Shown: positions 1,611-50,494 of the stretch, in pieces
How the letters are laid out: each line of letters begins with the position of its first letter
Numbering within the stretch: the first letter of the stretch is position 1
Assembly: GCA_965261355.1 (NCBI GenBank)
Contig: CBDHDK010000002.1
Span: 731,304 to 795,303 of the forward strand
From: Dehalococcoidia bacterium
Lineage (GTDB): Bacteria > Chloroflexota > Dehalococcoidia > Lucifugimonadales > UBA3495
Reading direction: 5' to 3'
Length of the DNA: 64,000 nucleotides
Translations under genes and position numbers: made by a program
The notes under the pieces: generated by a model
Seen by the model: only the letters and a program-made list of their open reading frames with translations
The model's database searches: none
What the model was told of the DNA's origin: nothing

Positions 1611-1689
1611 CTAGCCCCCGCGTATCTATGCTGTCTTGATCCGGGCCATCTTAGCAACCGGGTGTCGGCACTGGCAAACTGCGGCTGGG

Positions 1690-2136
1690 CTACACCGTCG
1701 GTTCGCCCAGGCCGCCGCAGTCTGCTGGCACGGCCTCGTCCTCGCCGGGCCAGGGCGGCGTGGTGTGACAGAGGAAGCGCAGGGGCCCGTCGGGACCGGC
1801 CGCGAACTGGAAGCGCCAGCCTGTGGGAATGACCAGCGAGTCACCCGGCGACACGGGCAGCGGCGAGATGAACGCGGGGGCGACGTTGGGCGGACAGCGC
1901 CAAACCTGGCCTTCGCCCTCGAGGATGTACCAGATTTCCTCCACGGTGCGGTGGTGTACCGGGCGCGAGACCTGCCCGGCCGGGAGCGTCACCTCCACCA
2001 TGCTGCTCCTGCTCGCTGCGTGTCGCCCGTCGGCCAGTAGGCGTATCTCCGAACCGTCGGGGGCGGTGGCGTCCGGGCGGTCGGCGCGCCGGTTGGGCTG
2101 CGGGACCCTAGCCCATGTGGAATCGATTTCGTTCAT
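1690..2136 (-). CDS. cupin-domain protein
   Basis: 148-aa ORF. 'HHRTVEEIWYILEGEGQVW...PGDSLVIPTGWRFQF' matches the two-motif cupin pattern. Confidence 0.6.
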   Translation of the reverse strand: MNEIDSTWARVPQPNRRADRPDATAPDGSEIRLLADGRHAASRSSMVEVTLPAGQVSRPVHHRTVEEIWYILEGEGQVWRCPPNVAPAFISPLPVSPGDSLVIPTGWRFQFAAGPDGPLRFLCHTTPPWPGEDEAVPADCGGLGEPTV

Positions 2137-2179
2137 TGTGTATTCCTGGATATATTCTCGGTTCTCTTGCCGCGCACGG

Positions 2180-3631
2180 TTACCCGGCCACGGTCAGGCT
2201 CTCTCCGACCACGTTCCACCAAGGCAGGGCGAAGGCAAACAGCACCGACACGGCCACCAGTGTCATGATGAAGCCGGTACGCAGCACCTCGGGAGATGAT
2301 ATCTCCGCCCTCTGGTAGATGAATACGCTACCGGCGGCCGCCGCCGGGTAGAACACCACGGAATCGCCGACGATGACCACCGCCAGGCCGCACACCAGCG
2401 GGTTCAGCCCCAGCGAGGCTCCGGTGGACATCGCCACCGGTATGATGAACGCCAGGTATCCGGCGATGTTGGGCATCACGAACCGGACCACCGACGCCGC
2501 GCCCGCCAACGCCAGCATCAGCAGCCACGGCGAGTCCGCGAAGCTGCCCACTGCGGAGACCAGCGTGCCGGCGAACCATGCCGCGGCGCCGCTTTCGACC
2601 AGCGCGCCGGACAGGGAAAGGGAGGTGGCGATGATGAAGAAGTTGCTCCAGCCCAGGTTCTGCTCCAGCTCCCGCCACGAGAGCAGCCCGATGCCGGGCA
2701 GCAGCATCACGACCATGGCAATGAGCGCCGGCACTGCGGGCGACAGGCCATGGGCGAAGTCGGTGAACCAGAGCAGGGCGACGCCTCCGGCAATCAGGCC
2801 GGCCTTCGCCTCCGCCGGGGTAAAGGGCCCGGGGCCCAATTCCGTGTCAGCCCCCCCCGCGGCAACCGGGGACCCAGCGAAGCCCGATCGGTAGAGCAGG
2901 AAGACGGCCAGCCCTCCCACCACTAGGATGCTCCAGAAGGGCAGGGCCATCAGCACGAACCAGCGGGTCCAGGAGAAGTCGCCGATGAGGGCCGCGGCAA
3001 CGACCGGGGTGATTCCTCCGGCCAGCAGGGCGGTGGACCCCAGGCGGTTGAGCGACCCCATGGCCATCATCACCGCCTTGTTCAGCGGGTGCTGCCTCTC
3101 GATATTCCATCGCCCCATGACCTGCTCGTAGACGTGCACCAGGATAGCGCCCCGCGTAGTGGCAGAGGGCAGCGCAAAGGTCAGGGCGGCGAAGGACACC
3201 AGCATCTGGACGTAGAGGGCGCGGGGGTTGCCTCGCGCCAGGCGAACCAGGTAGCCGGCCATGCGGTTTGCCAGCCCGGAGTGCTGCACGCCCAGGCCGA
3301 GGGTCAGCACGCCCAGCAGGAAGTAGGGCACCGGCTGGGAGAACCCGTACAAAGCCGCTTCAAGGTCGGGCACAGCCCGCAGCAGGGTGAGCAGGATGAC
3401 CGCCGCGATGCCGGTAACCGCGAGGGGAAGCGCGCCGGTGGTCCACAGTCCCACGGCCAAGGCCATGACCGCCAAGGCACGCTGGCCCTCTTCCGACAGG
3501 CCGTCGGGGGTGGCGGCCAGCAGCACTGCGGCGAAGGCCAGCAGCGGCAGGGCGAACTTCACCGCGGCAACGCCGGGCCGGTCGCCGAAGATTTTCAATC
3601 CGTCTGTGGGACCCTGTGCCGTCATCTTCAA
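2180..3631 (-). CDS. DASS/SLC13-type (ArsB/NhaD permease superfamily) anion transporter
   Basis: 483-aa polytopic membrane protein with repeated hairpin-like hydrophobic segments. General resemblance to CitT/SLC13 permeases; substrate unknown. Confidence 0.65.
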   Translation of the reverse strand: MKMTAQGPTDGLKIFGDRPGVAAVKFALPLLAFAAVLLAATPDGLSEEGQRALAVMALAVGLWTTGALPLAVTGIAAVILLTLLRAVPDLEAALYGFSQPVPYFLLGVLTLGLGVQHSGLANRMAGYLVRLARGNPRALYVQMLVSFAALTFALPSATTRGAILVHVYEQVMGRWNIERQHPLNKAVMMAMGSLNRLGSTALLAGGITPVVAAALIGDFSWTRWFVLMALPFWSILVVGGLAVFLLYRSGFAGSPVAAGGADTELGPGPFTPAEAKAGLIAGGVALLWFTDFAHGLSPAVPALIAMVVMLLPGIGLLSWRELEQNLGWSNFFIIATSLSLSGALVESGAAAWFAGTLVSAVGSFADSPWLLMLALAGAASVVRFVMPNIAGYLAFIIPVAMSTGASLGLNPLVCGLAVVIVGDSVVFYPAAAAGSVFIYQRAEISSPEVLRTGFIMTLVAVSVLFAFALPWWNVVGESLTVAG

Positions 3632-9545: not shown

Positions 9546-9734
9546 GGGTTCTACTCTCCTGTCGTACGCGATTAAAGGGGCGGCGGGCACCGACGGATGC
9601 GTTCCGCCGCAGGCCGTACCATCGGGTATACGCCCGCGCGTTGTCAAGCGGAGGGGAGGAGTTCTTGATACCGGAATAGTACCGACGCCATAGAGAATTG
9701 GGCGCGGTCCGCTCCCCTACCGAAGCGCCAACGA

Positions 9735-10334
9735 GTGTACAATTCCCTTAAAAGTCGACCTCCCGGTAACTCTATGTCAGACGTTTGCAATATGAACTTT
9801 CCCCAATTGATTGAAAAGGGTTGGACAATTATCCCAGATAGTGGGACGGGCCACCCCACCGCAATTAGGTCGGAAATCTCCGAATGGAACGAACTAACGT
9901 GGGCCCAGCAAACCTACTACCGCGGCAAATACCGCTTTGATGACACTGGCGTGCTGGAAATTGCCCTGTCGGAACTGAGCCAAGCCAACGAGGACTCTCG
10001 CAAGGAATTTCGCCGGGATTCCCGTCCAGACAAGCATGTCGCCCCCGGCGGAGCATTGGCTGGATCTAACGAACGCCTACGCAGGATATTGGAAGGAACT
10101 CGAGCTGATCTAAGCTATAGCAAATATGATGATTCTGCCTTGGTGCACATAGGACCGGACGACAGTGCCATTTACACTAGCGATTCGGGATGGGGGCCTC
10201 TAGCTTACTGGCCGGAGGATAGATTCTGTCTCGAGTTGGATGACTTTTACATGTGCGTCTGGGAATTACCCCCATATTCATATGGAATTTCGGAAGCGCC
10301 CTACTGGGCATGCCCTGGCTGCAACGGGCTTTAG
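9735..10334 (+). CDS. hypothetical protein (no recognisable domain), probably co-transcribed with the HNH nuclease gene
   Basis: 199-aa ORF in a lower-GC islet, ending 23 nt before the next gene. Start uncertain (GTG 9735, ATG 9774 or ATG 9792). C-terminal 'CPGC'. Confidence 0.4.
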   Translation: MYNSLKSRPPGNSMSDVCNMNFPQLIEKGWTIIPDSGTGHPTAIRSEISEWNELTWAQQTYYRGKYRFDDTGVLEIALSELSQANEDSRKEFRRDSRPDKHVAPGGALAGSNERLRRILEGTRADLSYSKYDDSALVHIGPDDSAIYTSDSGWGPLAYWPEDRFCLELDDFYMCVWELPPYSYGISEAPYWACPGCNGL

Positions 10335-10357
10335 ATTGCTCAAAAGTAAGCAGTAAA

Positions 10358-11119
10358 ATGCCTCCTTCAACCAGATGGACTAGAGAACAGCTATTGGTCG
10401 CATTTGCTCTCTACTGCCGCCTCCCGTTCGGCAGGTTGGATCATCGAAACCCTGAAATAATCCACTATGCAGGCCTAATCGACCGCTCTCCATCAGCACT
10501 CGCAATGAAGCTCTCAAACATCGCCAGTCTGGATCCTGAAATCACTTCAACGGGCAGGAGCGGCTTGAAAGCGACGTCAGCCCTTGACCGCGTCATGTGG
10601 GAGGAAATGCATAGCAATTGGGAAGGATTCGCTATCGAGGCTCAAAATACCATTGATCAAATAACGCCGGAACAGTCGCTTGAAATCGACGACGAAGACG
10701 CGTGGGACTATGCCGGACTAGACAAAGTGGTTGTAACCACGGCACGCGTGGGGCAGGCTTTCTTTCGTTCGGCGGTCATCAGCGCGTACAACAATCGGTG
10801 TTGCATTTCTGGACTTGCTTTGCCCAGATTGCTGATTGCGAGCCATATCGTTCCCTGGCGTCACGATAAGTCCAATAGGGTCAATCCCAGAAATGGTCTC
10901 TCGCTGTCTGCCCTGCATGACAAGGCCTTTGACTCTGGCCTCATAACGATCAACGGGGATATGACAGTTCGCGTGTCTCAATCTTATTCAGGCAATAGAG
11001 ACCCGTTCTTTACGGATTCCATCGAAGGCTTCGACGGTAAGCCAATTTCTCTCCCGGAGAAATTCAGCCCGGACCCAAAGTTTCTTGCATACCACAGAGA
11101 GCATATCTTCCAAGGTTGA
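10358..11119 (+). CDS. HNH-family nuclease (HNH_2 / COG3440-like putative restriction endonuclease)
   Basis: ATG at 10358 within ORF 10253..11119. N-terminal 'W..EQLLVAFALYCRLPFGRL...RSPSALAMKLSNIASLDP'. C-terminal 'GQAFFRSAVISAYNNRCCISGL...LIASHIVPW......NPRNGLSLSALHDKAFDSGLITI' is the HNH_2 signature. Confidence 0.75.
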   Translation: MPPSTRWTREQLLVAFALYCRLPFGRLDHRNPEIIHYAGLIDRSPSALAMKLSNIASLDPEITSTGRSGLKATSALDRVMWEEMHSNWEGFAIEAQNTIDQITPEQSLEIDDEDAWDYAGLDKVVVTTARVGQAFFRSAVISAYNNRCCISGLALPRLLIASHIVPWRHDKSNRVNPRNGLSLSALHDKAFDSGLITINGDMTVRVSQSYSGNRDPFFTDSIEGFDGKPISLPEKFSPDPKFLAYHREHIFQG

Positions 11120-11231
11120 TTCGGCGAAGAGTAACCTTCATCGAAAGCCTCGCTCACAATGACTTCCCCGCTGCCACCTACTTCCGAACCCTGCCTACTG
11201 GAATCTCTCCCTTGCGCTGAATCGCCACTGG

Positions 11232-11650
11232 TCGTACAATTGTTCTGTAATGGAACGCTCTGAGCCGCCAAAATACCCCGTCGCAAATAGCCCCAAATAC
11301 AGGCCAATTTGATACTACCGTTACAAAATGTTACAGAATGTTACACATCCACGAGAGCACACTCGGATAATGAGACCGGACAGGGCAATCGCGTTTTGAA
11401 CGCCGGAGGCCTTGTGACCTCTCATTCCCGCGTAGGCGGGAATCCAAACCCCCGTCTACCGTCGCACCCAGAACCCAGGGAAGCACTGTCAATTTCACCG
11501 CCACCTCTATTCCGGCCCAATTTGTCTGCCCAGAAATAAAACGCGATTGCCCTGTGAGACCGGAGTCCCCGCTTGCATCTGCTCGTAAGCATGAGATTTT
11601 GGCTTCTCCCCCCGATAATCCCAAGCCGACGAAGAGCAATTGACCAATCC
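11232..11650 (+). repeat. copy A of a conserved intergenic module (interrupted by MITE copy 1)
   Basis: 'tcgtacaattgttct' (11232), three 10-bp-phased GTTACA hexamers (11320-11346), 'gataatga', hairpin tgct-cgta-agca, 'gagattttggc' and 'caattgacca'. Homologous to 28872-29115 (+) and 41262-41493 (-). Confidence 0.65.
11381..11554. mobile_element. MITE-like element, copy 1 (174 bp, 17-bp TIRs, 10-bp TSD)
   Basis: TIRs cagggcaatcgcgtttt (11381-11397) and aaaacgcgattgccctg (11538-11554). Flanked by the direct repeat tgagaccgga (11371-11380 and 11555-11564). Internal attcccgc-gtag-gcgggaat hairpin. No coding capacity. Confidence 0.8.
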
Positions 11651-11686
11651 AACTGATTCGGCCGCTGCGCAACCTCACCTACTTCC

Positions 11687-11819: not shown

Positions 11820-13736
11820 ATGGTTGAACGGACAAACCGCGGGGGCGACGTCGCCCTCTTCATCGACTGGGAAAACTTCAAAATCAGTCTCGCCGCAGGA
11901 AATCGCAGCCCCAACCTTTCGTCGCTCAGAGAAGAGGTGTCCAACCAGGGCCGCGTGGTGGTGGCCAAAGCCTACGCCGACTGGGTGACCCGGGCGCCGG
12001 AGTTGCGAGGGGCCAGCCAGTTCAGCATCGACCCCCCGTCCCTCTACGCCGCAGGCATCGAGCCGGTGTTCGTTCCCACCCGGATCCCCTCCACCCAGGC
12101 CTCGTCGGCCAACGGGATGCGGACCTACCGGGTGAAGAACAGCGTCGACGTCAAGATGACCGCCGACTGCATCGAGTGCGCCCACTCCTACCCCAACATC
12201 GACACCTTCGTGCTGGTGTCCGGCGACTCGGACTTCCTGCACGTGGTGAACGCGCTGCGGACCATGGGCAAGCGGGTGGTTGTCATCGGCGTGTCGTGGA
12301 GCACGTCGCGCCGCCTGGCCGACCAGGTCGACTCGCTCCTGCTGTACGACAAGGACGTGGACCCGCTGGCTCCGCAGCCGGCGGTGCTGCCGCAGCACGC
12401 CAACCGGCGCGAGGAACAGAACGAGGCACCGGAACTGCCGGAGGTCATCCGTGCCATCGAGGACATTATCCGAGATGAGCGCGCCGCCGGCGGCAATCCG
12501 CTGTTGACCTCCATCAAGCAGCGGCTGATGCGCCGGTATCCCAGCTTCGATGAGAAGAAGCTGGGCTTCTCGGGCTTCAAGAAGCTCATGGCCCGGGCCG
12601 CCGAAGATGGCAACATCAAGCTGATTCACGCAGGCCTCGTCGACTGGGCCATCATGGGCGACGAGGAAACCCCCGAGGGCACGACCGAGGAAACCCCGTC
12701 GGGCGTGGCCGCCAGGCCCACCCGCCGACGGGGCGGACGCCGCCGCCACGGCGGGCAGCGCGACGGCGACGGCACCGACTCCGGTGATGAAACGCCTGAC
12801 GACGCCGCCGAAGATTTCGCCGAGGAGGATGAGGACGCGCAGGACTTCGCTGCCCCACCCTTCGATGTCTCCCTGGAAGAGACGGCTGCGACTGACTTCG
12901 AGGCGCCAACCGCCGCGCAACTTGGGACCGTCGCCGGCGAGCCCGCCGAGAAAGAGGCGGACGCCGTGTCCGACCCGGTCGCCACAGCCAAGGCCGAAGA
13001 AGAGACCCCGGCCGAGGCCGCTGTGCCGGAGGACCTGTTCGCCAGCGATGCCGGGCTCGAGGAGGCGATGCTGGAGGCACTGGCATCCGCCAGCCTGCCC
13101 GCCGAGCCGGAGGACGGAAAACACACCGAACGGGTTTCCGACCTCATCGTGATGGCCGACCACCTGGAGCACCGGCAAGGCTTCAGCCACGTGTCCTTCA
13201 ATCTTATGGTGGCCGAAATCTGCACCGCGCTGGAGCAGGGGCTGGAGGCAGGTAACGCCCAGATCGCCCTGCGGTGGACCGACGCAAGCTCCCGGGATTA
13301 CCTCAGCAAGATGTTGCGCGGACTGACGGACATCGACTTCTTCCGCCGCGCGGTCTATTCCTGGCGGGAAGAGGACACGGGCCGCCGCCGCCAGCGCCGG
13401 ACGTTCAACCTGAACCGCACCAGCGAGCTCGTCGGACGGGTGCTGGTCGCGCGCCTCGGCCCCGGCGCCAACGGAACTCCACCAGCGGAACCCGTCGCGG
13501 CCGGGGAGCAGGAAGACGCCGGGGAGCCGGAGCCGCAACCCGTGGAGCAGCAGCCGGAGCCACAATCCGCGGAGCAGCAGCCAGCGCTGGTCAACGGCGA
13601 CGGCGCGGCGGCAGAGCCTCCAGCAGCCATCGAACCGACTCCAGCACCGCCGCGGGACGACGACGAGGACGACGACGAGCCGCAGCCACGCAATGTTCGC
13701 CGCCGTCCCTTCACCAGCCGCCTGCTGCGGAGCTGA
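11820..13736 (+). CDS. NYN-domain (LabA/DUF88-like) RNase fused to an OST-HTH/LOTUS domain, with a long acidic low-complexity region
   Basis: 'VALFIDWENF...AKAYADW...NSVDVKMTADCIE...DTFVLVSGDSDFLHVVNALRTMGKRVVVIG' is the NYN part. '...LLTSIKQRLMRRYPSFDEKKLGFSGFKKLMARAAEDGNIKL' is the LOTUS part. It is followed by D/E/P/A-rich sequence and a basic tail. Confidence 0.8.
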   Translation: MVERTNRGGDVALFIDWENFKISLAAGNRSPNLSSLREEVSNQGRVVVAKAYADWVTRAPELRGASQFSIDPPSLYAAGIEPVFVPTRIPSTQASSANGMRTYRVKNSVDVKMTADCIECAHSYPNIDTFVLVSGDSDFLHVVNALRTMGKRVVVIGVSWSTSRRLADQVDSLLLYDKDVDPLAPQPAVLPQHANRREEQNEAPELPEVIRAIEDIIRDERAAGGNPLLTSIKQRLMRRYPSFDEKKLGFSGFKKLMARAAEDGNIKLIHAGLVDWAIMGDEETPEGTTEETPSGVAARPTRRRGGRRRHGGQRDGDGTDSGDETPDDAAEDFAEEDEDAQDFAAPPFDVSLEETAATDFEAPTAAQLGTVAGEPAEKEADAVSDPVATAKAEEETPAEAAVPEDLFASDAGLEEAMLEALASASLPAEPEDGKHTERVSDLIVMADHLEHRQGFSHVSFNLMVAEICTALEQGLEAGNAQIALRWTDASSRDYLSKMLRGLTDIDFFRRAVYSWREEDTGRRRQRRTFNLNRTSELVGRVLVARLGPGANGTPPAEPVAAGEQEDAGEPEPQPVEQQPEPQSAEQQPALVNGDGAAAEPPAAIEPTPAPPRDDDEDDDEPQPRNVRRRPFTSRLLRS

Positions 13737-14872: not shown

Positions 14873-16129
14873 CTAGAAATCCAGGATCAGCGTCGACCAG
14901 CCGAAGTCGCGGGCGCCAAGGCCTTCCGCAGTGTAAGGATGGTAGTACTCGCGGAAGCCGGACTTGGCGATGCACTCCTTGCTCTTCTCCACCAGCGGCT
15001 CGCTCAGCTCTGGATAACCGTGGCCGCGCAGGGAGTGGGACAGGAAGTAGTTGGTGTTCATCCACGACGGGCCGCGCCAGATGAAGCCCCCGGGGTTGCC
15101 CGGCATAAACTTGGGGTCCGACGCCGGCACCGACGGCAGCGGGTAGGGCGTCCAGAAGTGCTCGGGCCGGCGCACCCACCTTTCGACTAGCGTCTCGACT
15201 TGGTGGCGGGGCAGGTCTGCCATGATCAGCGGCATCAGCGAGCTGATGGTCACCGTCTTGAGCGGCTTCTCATCCACCCCCGACAGGTCGAAGAAGGCGC
15301 CGGCTTCCTCATCCCAGCACTTCTCGACGAGGGCGTTCAGCACCTTGTCGGCCTCTCGGTTGAACTCCGCGGCCTCCGGCGAGTCCTCCCCGCCGACCTC
15401 CGCATGCAGCCGGGCCAGGGCCCGCATGGAAAAGCAGTAGATGGAGTTGACCAGCACGTCCTCCACGTGAAATATGTCGGCGGCCAGCACGGCGTGGTCG
15501 TCGTGGCGCAGGGGCTCGTACGCCTCGTACACCTTCCGCAGTGCCGTGATGAAGCCTCGGTTGCTGAGCTCTTCCAGGCCGAGGATTTCGTCGTACTTGG
15601 GGGAACAGTCGGTGCCGGCCTCCTCTGGCTGTATCACGGCGATGAGACCGTCGTTGTCAGGGTCGCGTGCCTCTCGCAGGTAGCGGTAGAACGCGGTCAG
15701 GACAGGCAGCGCTTCCCGCAGGAACTCCTCGTCGCCGGTCACGCGGTAGATGCGGGCCACGGCGTACGCGATGATGGGCGGCTGGATGGTCGCGCTGAAG
15801 TAGGGCTCGGTCATCCCGACGATGTTGCGGCTGAGGAAGTCGGGCTGCTTCTCCATCTCCCAGAAAATGATGTGGGGGATGAAGCCGCTGGGCTGCGCTC
15901 CGCTCATCAGCGAGCGCATTTCCTTCTTGGCCTGCTCCGGGTCCAGGTGCAGCAGGGCAAGGGCATGGAAGCAGGAGTCCCAGAACCACTGGAAGGGATA
16001 GCCGGTCAGGGAGGGGCAGACAAAGCTGAACTCCTTGCCGTTCCAGTCGGCCACGCCCTCCCGCAGGTTCGACAGCAGGATACGGCGGGCGCCCTCTTCC
16101 AGTTGCTCGCGAGAAATGGCGCTTGTCAT
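14873..16129 (-). CDS. (alpha/alpha)6 six-hairpin glycoside hydrolase, GH63/MGH1-like (glucosyl-/mannosylglycerate hydrolase- or trehalase-like)
   Basis: 418 aa. 'YPFQWFWDSCFHALAL', 'GFIPHIIFWE', 'GFIWRGPSWMNTNYF', 'FREYYHPYTAEGLGARDFGWS'. Specificity not inferable. Confidence 0.55.
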   Translation of the reverse strand: MTSAISREQLEEGARRILLSNLREGVADWNGKEFSFVCPSLTGYPFQWFWDSCFHALALLHLDPEQAKKEMRSLMSGAQPSGFIPHIIFWEMEKQPDFLSRNIVGMTEPYFSATIQPPIIAYAVARIYRVTGDEEFLREALPVLTAFYRYLREARDPDNDGLIAVIQPEEAGTDCSPKYDEILGLEELSNRGFITALRKVYEAYEPLRHDDHAVLAADIFHVEDVLVNSIYCFSMRALARLHAEVGGEDSPEAAEFNREADKVLNALVEKCWDEEAGAFFDLSGVDEKPLKTVTISSLMPLIMADLPRHQVETLVERWVRRPEHFWTPYPLPSVPASDPKFMPGNPGGFIWRGPSWMNTNYFLSHSLRGHGYPELSEPLVEKSKECIAKSGFREYYHPYTAEGLGARDFGWSTLILDF

Positions 16130-18174: not shown

Positions 18175-20433
18175 CTAGTCACTTGCGGCCTCCAGGGCAC
18201 GCATCCAGGTGTCGGCAAGGCTGGCCACCGGCAAGTCTATGCCGTTGTCAGCACCCGCGCCGTCCTCATTGCGGCTGTCGAGGCCGAGGGCATCCCCGCC
18301 CGTGAATCCCAGCAGCGACACCGGAGCGTTGTTGGCGTGGGCCAGGTCCTGCAATAGATTCATCCTGTCCCTCGCTACCGACACGACGATGCGCGACTGC
18401 TTCTCGCCGAAAAGCGCTGCGTCCCATCGAGACAGGGAGTCCAGCGACGCCTCGAAGCGGAACCCGACGTCTCCCAGGATGCAGGACTCTGCCACCGCCA
18501 CGGCCAGACCGCCGTCCGAGCAGTCGTGAGCGGATAGGACAAGGCCCTGCTTGATGGCTTCGCGGCAGGTCTCCTGCACCCGTCGCTCCAGGCCCAGGTC
18601 AATGCGGGGCTGGCCGGCGGTTAGGCCGTGCATCACCTGGAGGTACTCGCTGCCGGAGAGGTCCTGCGACCCGGCTGCGCCGAACCCGGGGCCCAGCAGC
18701 ATCACAGCCAGACCCTCGCCCGGGAAGCCCGCGCCGACGGTCTTGGTGGCGTCGTCGAGCAGGCCCAGCGCACCGACCACCGGTGTGGGGTGCACGGCTT
18801 GGCCCTGCGTCTCGTTGAAGAGGCTGACGTTGCCGCTGACCACCGGGGCGTCGAAGGCCTCGCTTGCTAGGGCCATGCCGCGGATGCACTCCTCAAGCTG
18901 GTAGTAGATGTCGGGGCGCAGCGGGTTGCCGAAGTTCAGGCAGTCGGTGAGCGCCAGGGGCCGGGCGCCAGTGCAGGACAGGTTGCGGCAGACCTCGGCC
19001 ACCGCTATCTGCCCGCCCACGTAGGGATCGAGAAAGCAGTGCCGCCCGTTGCCGTCCACGGCCACGGCGACGGCCTTGCCAGTGCCCTTGACGCGCAGCA
19101 CAGCGGCGTCACTCCCTCCGGGCCCGGCGACGGTGTTGGTCTGCACATGGTGATCGTACTGCCGGTAGACGACGTGCTTGCTGGCGATGTTGGGCGAGGC
19201 CAGCAGCCGAAGCAGCGTTTCAGCCGGACCGCAGTCTGGCAATGTCAGGTCTGCCAAGGGCATTTCTCGTCGCGCCAGGTCTTCCTCCGACGGCTGGCCT
19301 TCCAGCCGGTATGACGGAGCTTCGGAGAGGGGCCGGATGGGCAGGTGAGCCACTGGGTCGGGGCCGTCGTAAATCTGCGCCTCCGGGTCCGATATGACCT
19401 CGCCTATCTCGCGGCATTCCACATCCCAGCGTTCGAAGACAGACCGCACCTCGTCGACACGCTCGGGGAGGGTCACCAGCAGCATCCGCTCCTGCGACTC
19501 GGACAGCATCACCTCGTAGGGGGACATGCCGGTCTCGCGGCGATGCACCTGCGACAGGTCGATACGGATGCCGAGCCCGGCCCGGGCTGCCGACTCAATG
19601 GCCGCGCTGGTCAGCCCTGCGGCGCCCAGGTCCTGGATGGCCAGCACCGCCCCGGTATCGAGTGCCTCGAGGCAGGCCTCTATGAGCACCTTCTCAAGAA
19701 ATGGGTTGCCCACCTGTACCGTAGGGCGCAGCTCCGCCTCTTCCTCAAAGGTGCGGGAGGCCAGGCCCGACGCGCCATGGATGCCGTCGCGCCCGGTGTC
19801 GGCCCCCGCCAGCAGCAGAACGCTGCCGGGAACCCGCGCCGCCGCCGAGGCCAGGCGCTCGGTCTCGATCAGGCCCACGCACATGGCGTTGACCAGCGGG
19901 TTGTGAGAGTAGGAGGAGTCGAAGTAGATTTCGCCCCCCACGTCAGGTACGCCGATACAGTTGCCGTACCAGGAGATGCCCCGCACCACGCCGCCGAACA
20001 GGTGCCGGTTGACCGCACCATTCACGAGGTCGTCGGGCGGGCCGAAGCGCAGGGAGTTCAGCAGGGCGATGGGGCGGGCGCCCATTGCCAGTATGTCCCG
20101 CACGATGCCGCCGACGCCGGTGGCCGCTCCCTGGAAGGGTTCTACGGCCGAGGGGTGGTTGTGGGATTCGACCTTGAACACCACGGCCAGCCCGTCGCCA
20201 ATGTCCACTGCGCCGGCGTTCTCGGCCCCGGTCTCCGAGAGCACGACCGGCGAGGTATGGCTGAACATGCTCAGCAGGGGTCGCGAGTGCTTGTAGCCAC
20301 AGTGCTCGCTCCAGAGCGCGCCGAACATGCCCAACTCCACGGCGTTGGGCTCGCGGCTGAGCCGTTCCACGATCAGGTCGTACTCGACACGGGTCAGGGC
20401 GATTTCGTCCAGAACTTCCTGGGCAACGGGCAT
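18175..20433 (-). CDS. purL: phosphoribosylformylglycinamidine synthase subunit PurL
   Basis: 752 aa. 'ELGMFGALWSEHCGYKHS', 'VESHNHPSAVEPFQGAATGVGGIVRD'. Confidence 0.95.
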   Translation of the reverse strand: MPVAQEVLDEIALTRVEYDLIVERLSREPNAVELGMFGALWSEHCGYKHSRPLLSMFSHTSPVVLSETGAENAGAVDIGDGLAVVFKVESHNHPSAVEPFQGAATGVGGIVRDILAMGARPIALLNSLRFGPPDDLVNGAVNRHLFGGVVRGISWYGNCIGVPDVGGEIYFDSSYSHNPLVNAMCVGLIETERLASAAARVPGSVLLLAGADTGRDGIHGASGLASRTFEEEAELRPTVQVGNPFLEKVLIEACLEALDTGAVLAIQDLGAAGLTSAAIESAARAGLGIRIDLSQVHRRETGMSPYEVMLSESQERMLLVTLPERVDEVRSVFERWDVECREIGEVISDPEAQIYDGPDPVAHLPIRPLSEAPSYRLEGQPSEEDLARREMPLADLTLPDCGPAETLLRLLASPNIASKHVVYRQYDHHVQTNTVAGPGGSDAAVLRVKGTGKAVAVAVDGNGRHCFLDPYVGGQIAVAEVCRNLSCTGARPLALTDCLNFGNPLRPDIYYQLEECIRGMALASEAFDAPVVSGNVSLFNETQGQAVHPTPVVGALGLLDDATKTVGAGFPGEGLAVMLLGPGFGAAGSQDLSGSEYLQVMHGLTAGQPRIDLGLERRVQETCREAIKQGLVLSAHDCSDGGLAVAVAESCILGDVGFRFEASLDSLSRWDAALFGEKQSRIVVSVARDRMNLLQDLAHANNAPVSLLGFTGGDALGLDSRNEDGAGADNGIDLPVASLADTWMRALEAASD

Positions 20434-20542: not shown

Positions 20543-21783
20543 CTAAACCAAAGCCAAGGTGAAATACGCAGACGCGTAGGGTAAATTTGTGAGGGAACTG
20601 GGTTAGCCGGTCTCAGGAGTAGCGGGGGGTTGGTGATGGGTGTGAGGGAGATAGACCGGTCTCTGGAACAATGGCAGATGGGGGTCAGGGATTTGCGGCG
20701 GCGGATGATTCTGGCGCCCACACCCAGGGAGCGGGAGCGGTGGTACGCCCTCTGGCTCTTGGCGCAGGGCTGGACAGCAACGGCCACGGCGGAGGCGCTG
20801 GAGCGGGACCCCCACACCATAGGACGGTGGGCTTCGGTTTTCGGCGAGGGAGGGCCAGCGGCCTTGATATTTGAGCAGACCGGTGGTTCCCCCCCGTCCT
20901 TGACGAGACGCAGCAGGCGGAGTTGAAAGGGGCGGTAGGGCAACCGCCCGCTGAGGCGGGCATCGAACTGGCCAACTGGTATTGGAAAGGAGTCCGGCAG
21001 TTTGTCTTGGAACGGTTCGGGGTCAGTTTGAGCCGCAGCAGTTGTCTGAACTGGCTGCACCGGTTGGGATTTGCCTTCAAGCGGCCCAAGAAGCGTCTGC
21101 TCAAGGCGGATGAGGGCAAGCGGGAGGCCTTCGTGGTGGAGTATACCGCCCTGAGGGAGGAGGCCCAACGGACCGGAGCCAGGATATTCTTCGCCGATGA
21201 GGCCCACTTCCGGGCCGATGCAGAGTTGCGGGGCAAGTGGGTACTGAGAGGAGAGGCTGCTCTGGTGGACTCGACCAGTCCGCGGTATGGGGAGAAGGCC
21301 AGCTATTATTCGGCGGTGTGCCTGGAGACGGGTGAGGTGGAGTGGATGGAGTTGCAGGGGAACAGCAACGCCGGGACCTCGGTTGACTTCCTGAAGCAAC
21401 TGAGGGGAAAACACCCTGAGCCGATGCGGGTCATCTGGGACAATGCCCCGGCCCACCGTGGGGAGGCGATGCGGGAGTACCTCAGGACGCCTGGGCTGGA
21501 GTTGAGGTTGGTGAACCTGCCGGGGTACAGCCCGGACTTCAACGGGGATGAGGCGATCTGGGGTTGGGCGAGAGAGGAGGCCACCGGCAATCTGTGCTTG
21601 GGAAGCAGGGAGGCGGTGCAGGAGAAGGTTGGCAAATTCCTTGCCGGACTGGCCAGCCGCAAAGACGAGGTGAGACGGCGGTGCCGGACAGTCTTGCAGT
21701 CACGGGGCGAGACGCTCCTGCGAGCCTCCCGGACCGATTCTCAGCCTCCGGCAAATGCACATCCCACCTTGGCTTTGGTTTAG
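20543..21783 (+). mobile_element. IS630-family insertion sequence (1241 bp)
   Basis: 19-bp perfect TIRs ctaaaccaaagccaaggtg (20543-20561) and caccttggctttggtttag (21765-21783). TA dinucleotides at 20540-20541 and 21784-21785. Encodes an HTH + DDE transposase. Confidence 0.85.
20630..21783 (+). CDS. IS630-family transposase, two frames joined by a -1 shift in a C7 run (about 20889-20896)
   Basis: ORF 20630..20926 ('RERWYALWLLAQGWTATATAEALERDPHTIGRW', HTH) continues as '..GGSPPVLDETQQAELKGAV..' in ORF 20923..21783. DDE region: 'IFFADEAHF...YYSAV...VIWDNAPAHRG...LPGYSPDFNGDEAIW'. The stop lies inside the right TIR. Confidence 0.8.
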
Positions 21784-22541: not shown

Positions 22542-23786
22542 CTATTTTCCCTCGGGGTTATCCACAGTCAAGTCTCCCCTGACAGAAGGCGCGCCACTTG
22601 ATAATCGTCCTTCCAGCGTAATTTTGCCGCCTTCTACGTAATGGTAGGGCACCCCATTCCCGAAAAATCCGTCGACCTGCTCACGATCGGTCGTCGTTAT
22701 CATCACCTGCGGATAGTTGGCCGTTTTCTCCAGCACGCGGCGTCGTCGGTCCGCGTCCATCTCCGAGAGTGCGTCGTCGAGCAACAGCAGTGGCCGGGTG
22801 CCACGCACCGCCGACAACGTCTCTGCCTCCGCCAGCCGCAGGGAGAGGGCAAGGGTACGGGCCTGCCCGCGGGAGGCGAAGGCGCCCATGTCCACGCCGT
22901 TGACGACGATGTCGAAGTCGTCGCGGTGCGGGCCGGCGGCGGTGGCGGCCGTTGCTCGCTCGCGGCCAGCGACGGCCCGCAGCGCTTCCCGGTAGCTATC
23001 CGACATGTCATCGGCAGAGGCGGACAGCGGAACGCTGGGGCGGTAACGCAGCTCCAGTGCCTCATCAGACCCTACGAGGTCAGCGTGGTGACGGACGCAG
23101 GCGGGCGTGAGTATGTTCATCACCTCGCGGCGTCGCCAGGTCAGCCAGCTTCCTTCCCGCACCAACTCGTCGTCCCAGAACTCCATCTCGTCGGGGGCCG
23201 CCCGACCTTCGCGCCGCATCCGAAGGAGGCGGTTGCGCTGCTGCAGCACCCGCTGGTAACGCTGCAGGCACTGGAGGTACAGCGGATCGGCCTGGGAGAT
23301 GAGGATGTCGAGGAAGCGGCGACGGGCCGAGGGCGGACCCTGCACCAGATCGATGTCCTGCACGCTGAACAGGACCGCGTGGACCAGCCCCACTAACGAC
23401 CCGGCGGTGCGGCGCATCCGGTCGACGCGAATCTCCTTGTGGACGCGATACCCGGGCCCGGTTGCTGACTCGGAGGGCGACGCTCGGTAGCCAATGATAA
23501 CGCGCTGGCGGGAGGGCGCGCCGCTGTCCGAGTCCTCCGGTGTGTCGTCCTCGACAAGGCCGTCTACGAGGGCCTGCCCTCCCTCGCGCGCGGCGTCGAA
23601 GTTGACCAACTCACGCTCGTTCTCGGCCCGGAAGGAGCGGGCTATGGCGAGGAGGTACACCGCTTCGACCAGCGCCGTCTTGCCCTGCGCGTTCTGGCCG
23701 TAGTACACCGAGACGCCCGGCGGCACCTCCAGGTCCACCTCGGCCAGATTGCGGAAGTTGCTCAGGCGAAGACGGGAGAGGCGCAC
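22542..23786 (-). CDS. recF: DNA replication and repair protein RecF
   Basis: 'MRLSRLRLSNFRNL...VYYGQNAQGKTALVEAVYLL' (Walker A), '...LLLLDDALSEMD' (Walker B). Confidence 0.9.
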   Translation of the reverse strand: MRLSRLRLSNFRNLAEVDLEVPPGVSVYYGQNAQGKTALVEAVYLLAIARSFRAENERELVNFDAAREGGQALVDGLVEDDTPEDSDSGAPSRQRVIIGYRASPSESATGPGYRVHKEIRVDRMRRTAGSLVGLVHAVLFSVQDIDLVQGPPSARRRFLDILISQADPLYLQCLQRYQRVLQQRNRLLRMRREGRAAPDEMEFWDDELVREGSWLTWRRREVMNILTPACVRHHADLVGSDEALELRYRPSVPLSASADDMSDSYREALRAVAGRERATAATAAGPHRDDFDIVVNGVDMGAFASRGQARTLALSLRLAEAETLSAVRGTRPLLLLDDALSEMDADRRRRVLEKTANYPQVMITTTDREQVDGFFGNGVPYHYVEGGKITLEGRLSSGAPSVRGDLTVDNPEGK

Positions 23787-26139: not shown

Positions 26140-26529
26140 ATGTCCACTACAATCGACCGAGTAAGCGAACTCTTCGAGGACGCCCGCGAGCTGTACGGCG
26201 ATGCCCTGGAAATGTTGGAACAGGGCAGAATCCGAAACGCAGCGGAGAAGGCCTGGGGCGCGACCAAGCGCTCCACCGACGCCATGGTGCTCGCCCGAAC
26301 CGGAACCGAACCCCAGTCCGAAGCTGAAGCACACCGGGAGTTGCTGCGTGGCCGCAACTCGGAACCCAATCTCGTGGCATTCCACGGCCAGTACAGCGCC
26401 CGTTCTGGTCTCTTGAAGATCAACTGCTTCTATGACGGCAACTGCGAGCCGGAAGATGAAATGACGGCTCTTATTCGAGACACCGAATCCTACATCAATG
26501 AGGCAATCACTCTGGCAGGGACGCGGTAG
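26140..26529 (+). CDS. PaREP1-like / HEPN-superfamily four-helix protein
   Basis: 129 aa. 'ARELYGDALEMLEQGRIRNAAEKAWGATKRSTDAMVLA' resembles the PaREP1 motif. Assignment from memory, not searched. Confidence 0.45.
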   Translation: MSTTIDRVSELFEDARELYGDALEMLEQGRIRNAAEKAWGATKRSTDAMVLARTGTEPQSEAEAHRELLRGRNSEPNLVAFHGQYSARSGLLKINCFYDGNCEPEDEMTALIRDTESYINEAITLAGTR

Positions 26530-26571
26530 CGGGTCCTCGCCGAGCAGCTAATTCAACGCGAGAGAAGAGAT

Positions 26572-26856
26572 ATGCCAGGCTCCGAACACGGCAAGGTAGA
26601 AGCGGAAATCGTCTATTGTGTGGCTTGAGGCTACTTCCCGGTCGCCACGTGGCTGGCGACGGAATTCTTCAAGTCCGACGCTCCCGGAGATGTCGCCATC
26701 AAGATGACCCCCTCCGACCGGGGGCGCCTCGAAGTGTACCTCGACGGCGAAGTGATCTTCGACCGCAAGACCGACGGCGGTTTCCCGGACCTCGGCAAGG
26801 TCAACGAGCTGAAGATGACCATTGCCGAGAAGCTGTTCGATCTCGACGATGTCTAG
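26572..26856 (+). CDS. SelW/Rdx-family selenoprotein (in-frame UGA = Sec at codon 19)
   Basis: ATG 26572, TGA 26626-26628, TAG 26854-26856. MPGSEHGKVEAEIVYCVA-U-GYFPVATWLATEFF...GRLEVYLDGEVIFDRKTDGGFPDLGKVNELK. The CxxU sits at the Rdx redox motif, and there is a hairpin 12 nt downstream. Absent from the ORF track. Confidence 0.75.
26641..26660 (+). promoter_or_regulatory. candidate bacterial SECIS hairpin
   Basis: gtcgcca-cgtggc-tggcgac, a 7-bp perfect stem with a G-containing 6-nt loop, starting 12 nt after the UGA. Confidence 0.5.
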
Positions 26857-26962
26857 CCGGACCGCTCCTTCTGTTCCCTTCCCCTCTGGAAGAGGGTTAG
26901 GGTGAGAGCGTTAACCGGCCCCTGCCCTGCGTCACCCATTACCACCTTCCCGGAGGATCATC

Positions 26963-27634
26963 TTGTCTGACCCTCAACACGTGGAAACCGTGCGGGCCGG
27001 GTCTGCCGCCATAGCCCAGTGGCGCGCCGACAACCCGGACGTTGAGCTTGATCTGCGCGGCGCTGACCTGCGGGGGGTGAACCTCGCCAGGGCAGACCTG
27101 CGCGGCGCGGCCCTATCCCGCGCCAGCCTTCCGGACGCCGACCTCTCGGGCGCAAACCTCGAGATGGCCGACCTTGGCCGGGCATCCCTCTCCGGCGCAA
27201 ACCTGGCTTCGGCCAACCTCACCAACGTCAACCTGTTCTGGGCCGACCTCAAGGGCGCCAACCTGAAGGACGCCGTGGTGCGGCACTGCCGGATGAACCG
27301 GGTTAACCTGATCGGCGCAACACTGCACCGGACCGACTTCAGCCAGTCGAACATGATCGAGGCCGACCTGCGCAACGCCGACCTCACGGACGCCCTGTTC
27401 GTCTCCGCCAACATGAACGGCGCCGACCTGTCGCGCTGCAGCATGAAGGGCGCGGACTTCACCCGCGCGATGATCCGGGACTCGATGTGGATCGCCACCA
27501 ACATGACCGGAGCCGATTTCAACCAGGCCAGCTTGCACCGCTCCGACTTCACCCTAGCCAAGTGGGACGAAACCACCCGCTTCCCCGACGGCTTCGACCC
27601 CGAGGACATCGAGTTCCTCGACGTGGGCGTCTAG
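26963..27634 (+). CDS. pentapeptide-repeat protein
   Basis: TTG start after CGGAGGA. About 30 consecutive A(D/N)LxX pentapeptides (ADLRGVNLARADLRGAALSRASLPDADLSGANL...). Confidence 0.9.
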   Translation: MSDPQHVETVRAGSAAIAQWRADNPDVELDLRGADLRGVNLARADLRGAALSRASLPDADLSGANLEMADLGRASLSGANLASANLTNVNLFWADLKGANLKDAVVRHCRMNRVNLIGATLHRTDFSQSNMIEADLRNADLTDALFVSANMNGADLSRCSMKGADFTRAMIRDSMWIATNMTGADFNQASLHRSDFTLAKWDETTRFPDGFDPEDIEFLDVGV

Positions 27635-47366: not shown

Positions 47367-48551
47367 ATGGCGGACCGGGCAACAGGGATCAACCCCGCTA
47401 TGCTTCGCTGGGCACGTGAACAGGCCGGGTACGCGACTGTCGAATCGGTCGCGGCCCGCCTAAAACGCCCTGCGGAAGAGATTGAAGCCTGTGAGACCGG
47501 AACCAAGTACCCGACTTGGCGTCAACTGGAGCGGTTGGCGAGGGACGTTTATCACCGTCCAACCGCTCTCTTCTTCTTACCTGCTCCTCCGGACGAGCAC
47601 GTTCCCAGTGCGGAGTTTCGTCGCCTCCCAGAGGCCGCTCTCTATGACTTGGAACCAGACACGTGGTTGGCAATTCGACAGGCAAGAGCTCGCCAAATCG
47701 ATTTGGAAGAGCTGGCCCCCTTTGACGACTCATTGGAACGGCAGCTCGTTCGGGATTTAGCGGGAAGTGCTAATTCAGACGGCGCGGATAGTCTGGCGAT
47801 GGAAGCGCGGAGGTACTTGAATATTTCACTGGATGAGCAATTCGCTTGGCGATCGCTGGACGACGCTCTTGACGGTTGGCGCGATGCGGTGCAGTCAGCG
47901 GGTGTATGGGTCTTCAAGAGACACTTTAAACAGGGAGACGTGGCAGGCTTCTGTCTTTATGATGCCCAGCACCCTTTGGTGTATTTGAATAATAGTCAAT
48001 CGAAGGCGCGCCAAATTTTTACCCTATTTCACGAGATGGCCCATTTGCTTTTTGAATTCAATTATCTGGAGAGGTCAGATATTGGGCACTACGTGAATTC
48101 ACTCAATGGCCAAGACAGAGAAATCGAAATTGCATGCAATAGATTTGCTGGTGAATTCCTAGTGCCTACCACCCACTTCCAAACGTTTGCGGCCCCCGTC
48201 GTCCGTTCGGGGATAACAGACGACGTCCTGACCCTTCTTGCACGGACGTACGGGGTGAGTCGTGAAGTCGCTCTAAGGAAATGCCTGAATCAAGACTGGA
48301 TTGATCAGAATTTCTACGACGAGAAAGTGCAAGAATGGAAAGGACAGGTGTCAGAACGGATTGAGTCAGGGGGAGGCAACTATTACTCAAATCAAGGTAC
48401 TTATCTCGGAGCCAAATACACGACCTTAGCCTTCCGGGGCTTTTATCAGGGTGCCTACGATGTTGATCAGCTTTCCGAATACCTCGATGTTAAGGCATCC
48501 AATATCGGAGGCATTGAAAGCTGGCTCAACCAAAGGCTAGCTCATACATGA
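47367..48551 (+). CDS. XRE-type HTH fused to an ImmA/IrrE (COG2856) zinc metallopeptidase domain
   Basis: N-terminal 'LRWAREQAGYATVESVAARL...TWRQLERLARDVY'. 'FTLFHEMAHLLFE' is the HEXXH motif. 394 aa. Confidence 0.8.
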   Translation: MADRATGINPAMLRWAREQAGYATVESVAARLKRPAEEIEACETGTKYPTWRQLERLARDVYHRPTALFFLPAPPDEHVPSAEFRRLPEAALYDLEPDTWLAIRQARARQIDLEELAPFDDSLERQLVRDLAGSANSDGADSLAMEARRYLNISLDEQFAWRSLDDALDGWRDAVQSAGVWVFKRHFKQGDVAGFCLYDAQHPLVYLNNSQSKARQIFTLFHEMAHLLFEFNYLERSDIGHYVNSLNGQDREIEIACNRFAGEFLVPTTHFQTFAAPVVRSGITDDVLTLLARTYGVSREVALRKCLNQDWIDQNFYDEKVQEWKGQVSERIESGGGNYYSNQGTYLGAKYTTLAFRGFYQGAYDVDQLSEYLDVKASNIGGIESWLNQRLAHT

Positions 48552-49030: not shown

Positions 49031-50494
49031 CTAACCCTCCGCCGTCCACCGCAAGTTGGGTCGCCGCGCCGCCTGTGCCTCGTCGAGGCGGGCCACTGGC
49101 GTCGTGTGCGGGGCGTTGCGGACGAGGTCGGGGTCCTCGTCAATCTCCGCGTTGATCTGCTTCAGAGCGGCCACGAAGTCGTCGATGGTCTCCTGCGTTT
49201 CCGACTCGGTGGGCTCGATCATCAGGCACTCCGGCACGATCAGCGGGAAATACATCGTCGGCGCGTGGAAACCGTAGTCCAGCAGCCGCTTGGCGATCTC
49301 CAGCCCGCCTGCGCCTCTCGCCTTCTGCCAGTCGGCCGAGAAGACAGCCTCGTGCATACAGGTGCGGTCATAGGGCAGGTGATACACGTCCCGCAGCGCG
49401 TTCATCATGTAGTTGGCGTTCAGCACCGCGTTCCCGCTGATGGAGCGGACGCCCGCCGCGCCCAGGGTGCGGATGTATGTGTATGCCCGCACCAGAACCC
49501 CGAAGTTGCCGTGGAACCCGGCCAGCTTCCCGATGCTGTGCTCCGGAGTCGTCAGCCCGTAGCCGTCCGCCTCCGACCCCGTCACCACCGGCGCAGCCAA
49601 GTACGGCGCAAGCCGCTCCGTGGCGCAGACCGGCCCGGCACCCGGCCCGCCGCCGCCGTGGGGCGTGCTGAAGGTCTTGTGCAGGTTCAGGTGGCACACG
49701 TCGAAGCCCAGGTCCCCCAGCTTCACCCGACCCAGCAGCGCGTTCATGTTCGCGCCGTCGCCGTAGACCAGCCCGCCCGCCTCGTGGACGATGCGGCAGA
49801 CCTCGACGATGTTGGTGTCGAACAGCCCCAGCGTGCTGGGCAGCGTTATCATCACGCCCGCCAGGCTCTCGTCGGCTACGTCGTGCAGCGCCTCCAGGTC
49901 GACGTTGCCCTGGCTGTCCGATGCCAGCTCCACCACTTGGAACCCGGCCATCGCCGCCGACGCCGGATTGGTGCCGTGGGCGCTGTCGGGGATGGCGACC
50001 TTCGTCCGCCCGGTCTGGCCCTGGGCTTGCAGGTAAGCCTTGATCATCAGCATTCCGGCCAGTTCGCCGTGGGCGCCGGCCAGCGTGGCGAGGCTGACCG
50101 CGGGCAGGCCGGTGATCTCGGCGAGGAAGCCCTGCAGCCGGTGCAGCAGTTCCAGCGCTCCCTGCGACTGCTCGGCGGGCTGCATCGGGTGAATGCCGGC
50201 GAAACCGGGCAGGAAGGCGGTCTCGTCGTTGATCTTGGGGTTGTACTTCATGGTACAGCTGCCCAGCGGGTAGAAGTGCGTGTCGATGGAGAAGTTGCGC
50301 TGGCTAAGGCCGGTGAAGTACTGCACCACCTCCGGCTCGGAAATCTCCGGCAGCGGCAGGTCGTCGCGCAGCAGCGCAGCGTCGGGCATGGGCTGCGGCG
50401 GCACGTCGGACGCGGGCAGGACGGATCCCGCTCGGCCCGGCACGCTTCGCTCCATCAGCAGTTTCGATGTATCGCGGTTTCCGCCTTGACGCAT
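49031..50494 (-). CDS. gcvPB: glycine dehydrogenase (aminomethyl-transferring) subunit 2
   Basis: 487 aa. 'FYPLGSCTMKYNP', 'HLNLHKTFSTPHGGGGPG' (PLP lysine region). Confidence 0.95.
   Translation of the reverse strand: MRQGGNRDTSKLLMERSVPGRAGSVLPASDVPPQPMPDAALLRDDLPLPEISEPEVVQYFTGLSQRNFSIDTHFYPLGSCTMKYNPKINDETAFLPGFAGIHPMQPAEQSQGALELLHRLQGFLAEITGLPAVSLATLAGAHGELAGMLMIKAYLQAQGQTGRTKVAIPDSAHGTNPASAAMAGFQVVELASDSQGNVDLEALHDVADESLAGVMITLPSTLGLFDTNIVEVCRIVHEAGGLVYGDGANMNALLGRVKLGDLGFDVCHLNLHKTFSTPHGGGGPGAGPVCATERLAPYLAAPVVTGSEADGYGLTTPEHSIGKLAGFHGNFGVLVRAYTYIRTLGAAGVRSISGNAVLNANYMMNALRDVYHLPYDRTCMHEAVFSADWQKARGAGGLEIAKRLLDYGFHAPTMYFPLIVPECLMIEPTESETQETIDDFVAALKQINAEIDEDPDLVRNAPHTTPVARLDEAQAARRPNLRWTAEG

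Follow-up and report, generated by a model that had tools for sequence, protein, structure and literature searches.

Within the window, that is the entire 64-kb stretch of Dehalococcoidia DNA analyzed here, one 94-codon frame lies on the plus strand between a gene of the PaREP1 family (26140-26529) and one with pentapeptide repeats (26963-27634). It runs from an ATG at 26572 to a TAG stop codon at 26854-26856, and its sole interruption is an in-frame TGA at 26626-26628. Judged from its translation and its matches to Pfam Rdx and TIGR02174, the complete CDS (26572-26856, plus strand) encodes a 94-residue Rdx/SelW-like protein and is a proposed selenoprotein gene with selenocysteine (Sec) at codon 19. 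A purine-rich Shine-Dalgarno-like run, gagagaagag (26560-26569), lies immediately 5' of the start codon, and GAGGAG-like runs occupy the same place in relatives. The TGA sits within a C-V-A-U motif, in which the TGT codon of Cys16 (26617-26619) provides the first residue of a C-x-x-U redox motif and the TGA, the proposed selenocysteine codon, provides residue 19. Downstream of it, a SECIS-like hairpin spans 26641-26660, with stem arms at 26641-26647 and 26654-26660 and a 6-nt loop, CGUGGC, at 26648-26653. The GC content at the three codon positions (0.62, 0.37 and 0.80) is typical for genes of the window, which contains one copy of the Rdx gene. The longest conventional in-frame ORF is a piece of only 50 aa (26704-26856), so that the gene is hidden from an ORF track with a 60-aa cutoff. 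The preliminary description had read the frame in the same way, with the TGA as its only break and with no counterpart in the six-frame track; sequence and translation match this reading exactly.

The gene stands alone between its two neighbors. By Pfam, the local order comprises two MaoC-like genes, PaREP1, Rdx, the pentapeptide-repeat gene, AAA_26/DRTGG, a HesB-type Fe-S gene and a GCV_T-like gene; this order around the Rdx gene is kept in relatives down to 66% identity, and the neighborhood offers no clear clue to a substrate. A further perfect 6-bp hairpin (ccctct-gga-agaggg, 26882-26896, plus strand) lies 26 nt past the Rdx stop; it has no T-run and was not called in a terminator scan. 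Farther away, a DDE_3/HTH_33 transposase gene (20923-21783, plus strand) is located between purL (18175-20433) and an SMC_N/RecF-like gene (22542-23786). As the latter two genes are adjacent in the relatives L003-L007, the transposase represents an IS insertion specific to the window genome. In three stretches, 9648-11678, 11820-13736 and 47367-48551, the GC3 signal is far lower than elsewhere in the window, and these may have been acquired horizontally; the second of them coincides with the gene for a 638-aa NYN-domain protein (11820-13736).

Homology searches place the product firmly in the Rdx/SelW-like family. With U replaced by C in the translation used as query, the protein matches Pfam Rdx (PF10262) with E = 1.3e-15 and 57.8 bits over residues 12-77, against a curated cutoff of 22.6, and TIGR02174 (CXXU_selWTH), a family named after the CxxU motif, with 49.9 bits against a cutoff of 34.2. 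The assignment to the SelW/Rdx family in the preliminary description is thereby borne out at the curated cutoffs of both models. The best NCBIfam match by E-value (1.1e-13) is NF041051 (SelTWH_Campy), yet its 51.2 bits remain below the cutoff of 88, and the Rdx gene falls outside this equivalog. Among solved structures, six bacterial Cys-type Rdx proteins are matched, from 2FA8 (E = 1.4e-10) through 3DEX (5.3e-7), and mouse SelW (2NPB) is matched weakly (E = 1.8e-3). This homology to solved structures, that to 2FA8 above all, implies a predicted thioredoxin-like fold (beta1-alpha1-beta2-beta3-beta4-alpha2). An AlphaFold2 model of the orthologue P0001, built from a shallow alignment, is untrustworthy at a pLDDT of 53.5, and its element order, E-H-E-E-H, is compatible with such a fold.

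The alignments with these proteins also define what the TGA replaces. Solved bacterial Rdx proteins have Y-C-T-Q-C or Y-C-R-Q-C in exactly the columns of Y-C-V-A-[TGA], and in 2FA8, 2OBK, 2P0G and 2OKA the first Cys of CxxC falls on Cys16 and the second on the TGA, which is the redox position that had been proposed for it from the sequence. More distant homologues were sought with the part after the TGA alone as query, searched exhaustively against 1.84 billion representatives. Full-length homologues at 35-58% identity carry CVPC, CLQC, CAVC, CVTC, CSVC or CFHC just ahead of the aligned region. A TGA where distant relatives have Cys constitutes the classic Sec/Cys signature. The C-terminal query also matched five giant proteins (P0126, P0133, P0137, P0142 and P0150; 1154-2999 aa) at several places each. 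P0126 and P0133 are of a PA14-repeat glucosaminidase type according to Pfam and were rejected as Rdx homologues; their '...RLxVDGxxV...' motif merely mimics the Rdx beta-hairpin.

The TGA is conserved without exception among the orthologues examined. A scan of GTDB species genomes retrieved 80 loci, all from Dehalococcoidia, SAR202 or Chloroflexota MAGs and several with sponge-type bin names, whose proteins range from 97% down to 61% identity to the window copy; OY763410.1 is one of the relatives at 97%, and OZ244112.1, OZ253565.1 and CBDDQX01 likewise count among the closest. All 80 species genomes, as well as the metagenome copies, have TGA at the Sec column, and none of them has a Cys codon there. 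All 83 unique orthologue sequences retain the first Cys of the motif, encoded by either TGC or TGT. Over the 14 codons 5' of the TGA, entropy amounts to 0.33, 0.17 and 1.14 bits at codon positions 1, 2 and 3; the upstream protein is thus conserved while its third positions are free, in the same frame as downstream, which reveals protein-level selection ahead of the TGA. In addition, 74 of 88 copies have an ATG 18 codons ahead of the TGA, with a GAGGAG-like Shine-Dalgarno sequence beside it. Upstream selection and the conserved translation start together indicate that translation begins upstream and passes through the TGA, which excludes the readings of the locus as a pseudogene or as a short downstream ORF. 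The immediate context of the codon is constrained as well: the base 5' of the UGA (last base of codon 26623-26625) is nearly always T among the 83 orthologues (GCT, TCT, CCT or AGT; third-position entropy 0.16 bits), and the codon 3' of it always encodes Gly (GGN). The near-constant T and the Gly codon suggest a preferred U-UGA-G recoding context.

Public databases largely conceal these genes. Of the 237 database homologues, the majority measure 65-71 aa and span only the last 70% of the query, as they are gene calls that begin after the TGA; JGI labels some of these truncated orthologues 'selT/selW/selH-like putative selenoprotein'. Three database proteins (P0001, P0122 and P0135) show Trp at the Sec column. 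For P0001, the underlying DNA (L001:6055) reads TGA, and the W of the source translation is an artefact of translation under a code in which TGA means Trp. Such entries mask selenoproteins as apparent C-x-x-W proteins. The expectation that gene callers would miss the gene holds for the database homologues, of which nearly all are post-TGA stubs and one has W in place of the TGA. A different case is P0002, like P0001 a full-length match but a genuine paralogue with Gly (GGC) at the Sec column (C-A-P-G), which is encoded at L002:4126-4446 in tandem with a TGA-containing copy at L002:4568-4851. The codons that correspond to the hairpin stem are not frozen in this paralogue, which looks like a duplicate that lost both Sec and hairpin. 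That a copy without TGA is also a copy without frozen codons fits a constraint that exists only while the TGA needs recoding.

The hairpin itself, gtcgcca/cgtggc/tggcgac, forms a perfect 7-bp stem that starts 12 nt after the TGA, leaves 19 nt between UGA and loop, and is embedded in the codons for V-A-T-W-L-A-T; its earlier placement at 26641-26660 proved exact. It folds as predicted, with a folding z-score of -1.5. Perfect 7-bp hairpins number 64 in the window versus about 51 in shuffles, and 9 of the 802 TGA trinucleotides in the window have one 8-20 nt downstream. By itself, the hairpin is no more than chance would provide, so that the case for it rests on homology and conservation; the combination of Rdx homology, TGA conservation and frozen synonymous sites lies far beyond chance.

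This freezing is seen in the codon usage of the 83 unique orthologue sequences: over codons +6 to +10, counted from the TGA, synonymous variation all but vanishes, with entropy of about zero at GCC, NCG, YTG and GCG. Specifically, GCC is used in 83 of 83 sequences, the following codon (T, S, A or M) has G as its third base in 83 of 83, TGG is invariant, Leu is encoded by CTG or TTG only, and GCG is found in 82 of 83. Elsewhere in the gene, the same amino acids use 3-5 codons, and entropy is mostly 0.9-2.0 bits for the codons of Ala, Val, Gly, Pro, Thr and Leu. Averaged over third positions, it is 0.13 bits within the hairpin, compared with 1.14 upstream and 1.29 downstream, and the four four-fold codons in the hairpin all rank under all 21 outside it (Mann-Whitney p = 0.001). 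The protein sequence accounts for part of the invariance, namely the Trp codon UGG and positions 1 and 2 of the Ala codons. Codon bias offers no explanation for the two Ala codons being fixed differently, as GCC and GCG; base-pairing does, since each of their third bases pairs with another synonymous site. Position 2 of the loop is likewise a free synonymous site, and it is G in 83 of 83 sequences.

Pairing in the alignment points in the same direction. Across 61 unique sequences, 93% of cells are paired, as compared with 17-72% when the partner strand is slid. The pair 18-33, which joins two synonymous sites, occurs as CG in 51 sequences, UG in 9 and GC in 1 and is never broken, and the pair 21-30, also between two synonymous sites, is invariant. 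Two compensated double changes were found, C-G to G-C in L002 and G-C to A-U in L069, and three of the seven stem pairs are invariant; classical covariation is thin because the hairpin hardly varies. Taken together, the aligned sequences demonstrate selection on the hairpin at the RNA level. Only about 55-80% of sequences preserve the extended lower stems predicted from a single sequence, which were dropped from the model, and the search for other conserved structure near the TGA found none. Rfam, run over the whole window at the gathering threshold and permissively over 26500-26960, returned noise and no family match; it has no model for a bacterial SECIS of this kind. The resulting lineage consensus, GUCGCCA-CGUGGY-UGGCGAC at 12 nt after the UGA, is nearly invariant, with an 18-nt core that is frozen at every synonymous site. 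Bacterial SECIS elements have been described as stem-loops that closely follow the UGA and have G in a small apical loop (PMC1088965). The 12-nt spacer and the G in a small loop give the window hairpin a geometry that fits this published description. As such, the SECIS-like character first suggested by its spacing and G-containing loop holds up, now with the frozen synonymous sites in addition.

The genetic code of the organism bears directly on how the TGA is read. TGA ends 12 of 52 ORFs with a coding GC3 pattern and 12 of 44 among the longer ones, about a quarter, and the TGA-terminated genes with Pfam support in the window include obg, gcvH and an ABC ATPase. As TGA terminates many well-supported genes, the code is standard and read-through is specific to the site in the Rdx gene. 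The selenocysteine machinery was sought in several ways. No tRNA-Sec is present in the 64-kb window, which contains no tRNA gene at all, or in 60 related loci; none of the approximately 40 window ORFs scanned with Pfam is SelA, SelB or SelD; and neither the window nor 1.7 Mb of related loci contain selA, selB, selD or tRNA-Sec. Likewise, no Sec machinery emerged when the window and all related loci were searched by tblastn for matches to E. coli SelA, SelB and SelD: the SelD matches are PurL, and the single SelB-like match, in L087, belongs to a tuf-nusG-rplK-rplA cluster and is EF-Tu. Further TGA-split genes were sought in two scans of the window, which yielded nothing credible.

Indirect evidence that the lineage decodes Sec comes from relatives instead. 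On the related Dehalococcoidia chromosome L076, a UGSC-family gene (approximately 895-1422, minus strand) has an in-frame TGA (L076:1137) on the U of the motif AD-U-GTC-C. Its match to Pfam UGSC (104 bits, cutoff 25) covers residues 5-174 and includes the TGA, which is residue 96, and a similar hairpin, CGUGGA-UGG-UCCACG, lies 13 nt downstream of that TGA. The same contig also carries a TGA orthologue of the Rdx gene, which makes UGSC a second known selenoprotein family on it. Furthermore, the 2026 database BSepDB, which admits only species with at least two of SelA, SelB and SelD, lists 49 selenoprotein genes for Dehalococcoidia bacterium UBA1141 and 46 for a second Dehalococcoidia MAG, both among the ten richest bacteria (PMC13326102). 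UBA1141 corresponds to locus L065, which bears a TGA orthologue of the Rdx gene. In sponge-symbiont bins, SelA and SelB co-occur in most cases (PMC5649159). With this support from UBA1141 and L076, the source organism of the window probably decodes Sec as well. A separate in-frame TGA was noticed in an MFS transporter gene of the oxalate/formate or L-lactate type on L084 (approximately 1036-2362, minus strand), at position 1600 and residue 255 (FGYFV-U-GYSMSF). This TGA lies inside a single transporter domain, as individual HMMs cover residues 21-418 on both sides of it. With only one instance and a weak hairpin 3' of the TGA, the gene may be an undescribed selenoprotein, a pseudogene or the product of a sequencing error, and a literature search for MFS-transporter selenoproteins found no match.

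The available data support a model in which the locus is, very probably, a functional gene for a SelW-like selenoprotein and the hairpin at 26641-26660 directs recoding of its UGA. According to this model, the ribosome would start at the ATG at 26572, behind the purine-rich Shine-Dalgarno sequence, and meet the UGA after 18 codons. The hairpin, with its G-containing apical loop, would then act as a bacterial SECIS that tethers a SelB-GTP-Sec-tRNA(Sec) complex, and this complex would decode the UGA in competition with RF2, so that translation could continue to the TAG at 26854. The predicted product is a 94-residue thioredoxin-fold protein with the active site Cys16-Val-Ala-Sec19, presumably a thiol/selenol oxidoreductase that would cycle through a Cys16-Sec19 selenenylsulfide. 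The sequences show the frame, the family, the Sec/Cys column, the conservation of the TGA, translation through it and RNA-level selection on the hairpin, whereas the identity of the inserted residue, the binding of the hairpin by SelB and the redox chemistry of the Cys16-Sec19 pair are inferred.

Several other explanations for the same sequence have to be weighed against this model. A single base change converts TGC or TGT to TGA, and the window holds a single copy, so that a pseudogene, or a sequencing or assembly error in a Cys-type Rdx gene, might produce what is seen here; however, this TGA is shared by 80 independent species genomes and by several metagenome contigs, with unbroken orthologue frames and purifying selection on either side of it, which reduces the probability of such an origin to almost nothing. 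It is also extremely improbable that the real gene is the downstream part only, with the 18 upstream codons serving as an untranslated leader or as a separate tiny ORF ending at the TGA. The stub annotations of nearly all database homologues and the 50-aa limit of the longest conventional in-frame ORF in the window would agree with such an arrangement. Against it, the upstream codons keep their protein sequence while their third positions vary freely, provide strand beta1 and the Cys of the defining CxxC/CxxU motif, and come with a conserved Shine-Dalgarno sequence and ATG, whereas the stub starts, ATG or TTG depending on the relative, have no counterpart in the window, whose first in-frame start past the TGA is at 26704.

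The remaining alternatives accept a translated frame and question either the inserted residue or the element that directs it. The UGA could be read through by a reassigned code (Trp or Gly), by near-cognate read-through or by Cys insertion, as the W in the source translations of P0001, P0122 and P0135 and the failure to find Sec machinery within the window might suggest. However, the W of P0001 stands over a TGA in the DNA, TGA terminates well-supported genes such as obg, gcvH and the ABC ATPase, and W or G would destroy a redox motif that is Cys in homologues; a SECIS-type hairpin under selection and a lineage that has other known selenoprotein families and is reported to utilize Sec (PMC13326102) speak further for selenocysteine, which makes a different residue highly improbable. 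Finally, the gene might encode a selenoprotein while the hairpin is not its SECIS, its conservation reflecting helix constraint on V-A-T-W-L-A plus codon bias and another element directing Sec insertion. W-L-A is conserved in Cys-type homologues as well, covariation is sparse, the folding z-score is only -1.5, and about 13% of bacterial selenoprotein genes have no canonical SECIS according to BSepDB (PMC13326102). Yet protein constraint is unable to freeze synonymous third positions to the extent seen (GCC in 83/83, GCG in 82/83, YTG only, NCG always), the codons are relaxed in the TGA-less paralogue, and no other conserved structure was found nearby, so that this reading, too, is very unlikely. 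Recoding of the UGA as Sec through the 26641-26660 hairpin accordingly remains the preferred account.

In comparison with known systems, the window gene corresponds closely to the bacterial SelW-like (CxxU) selenoproteins known from marine metagenomes (Zhang and Gladyshev), with which it shares the Pfam and TIGRFAM family, the CxxU motif, a length of about 90-100 aa and a stem-loop with G in the loop just 3' of the UGA. Bacterial proteins of this type were described in 2005 and outnumber every other selenoprotein family of prokaryotes both in the Sargasso Sea dataset (48 genes) and in GOS (PMC1088965, PMC2398784). Sec forms far exceed Cys forms in GOS, with 427 against 56 SelW-like sequences (PMC2398784), and likewise no Cys form exists among the 80 orthologues analyzed here. 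Nothing essential differs from the marine set; the window gene is a member of the orthologue group of Dehalococcoidia and SAR202, which has a SECIS sequence of its own that hardly varies. The Cys-type bacterial Rdx proteins (Atu0228, 2FA8; 2OBK; 2P0G; 2OKA; 2OJL; 3DEX) are detectably homologous (E = 1e-10 to 5e-7) and share the blocks Y-C-x-x-C, with the TGA at the second Cys, A-x-W-[LM]-A-x-E, D-G-x-x-I and R-K-x-D-G-G-F-P. In contrast to the window gene, they have Cys in place of the TGA and so need no SECIS, and identity to them is only about 35%.

Mammalian SelW (2NPB) and the other eukaryotic Rdx proteins (SelW, SelT, SelH, SelV and Rdx12) belong to the same Pfam family and have CxxU at the beta1-alpha1 junction. 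Eukaryotic SelW relies on a SECIS in the 3'-UTR with SBP2 and eEFSec, whereas the window gene has a hairpin within the ORF and would rely on a putative SelB; the window gene is not an orthologue of SelW proper. The SECIS of E. coli fdhF is an in-ORF hairpin just 3' of the UGA, at a spacing of about 11 nt, with a loop G/U recognized by SelB. The window hairpin resembles this type in lying within the ORF just 3' of the UGA, with a spacer of about 11-12 nt and a small loop with a conserved G (and GU); it differs in its sequence, has no obvious bulged U, and its UGA-including lower stem is not conserved.

The stop codons of the lineage raise a further question. GC-rich bacteria usually favor TGA and use TAG least. 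In the window, which has 63% GC, the GC3-supported ORFs of at least 150 aa end in 26 TAG, 12 TGA and 6 TAA codons (examples of this TAG-dominant set are the ORFs at 14873-16129, 18175-20433, 26963-27634 and 49031-50494), and TAG makes up about 50% of stops across 79 GC-rich related loci (among L009-L088). This dominance of TAG might be linked to heavy recoding of UGA as Sec or to the balance between RF1 and RF2; a literature search on TAG-dominant stop usage in Chloroflexi returned nothing relevant. The lack of a Cys form in 80 species and the frozen 18-nt SECIS core raise the possibility that the Rdx gene is obligately Sec-dependent in Dehalococcoidia and SAR202. The full proposal, in which this dependence is obligate and TAG-dominant stops represent a genome-wide tuning of termination (for instance a weak RF2, or avoidance of UGA as a stop) for very heavy recoding of UGA in approximately 45-49 selenoprotein genes per genome, appears improbable.

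The window thus harbors a genuine SelW-like selenoprotein gene of an already known kind, and its recognition is a correction of annotation and not a discovery; knowledge of selenoproteins is otherwise unchanged by it. The Dehalococcoidia are already on record among the most selenoprotein-rich bacteria (PMC13326102). The restored annotation yields the 94-aa CxxU protein in its correct form and would identify its source as an organism that uses Sec, and the SECIS consensus derived from its orthologues could aid in finding other reported Dehalococcoidia selenoprotein genes.
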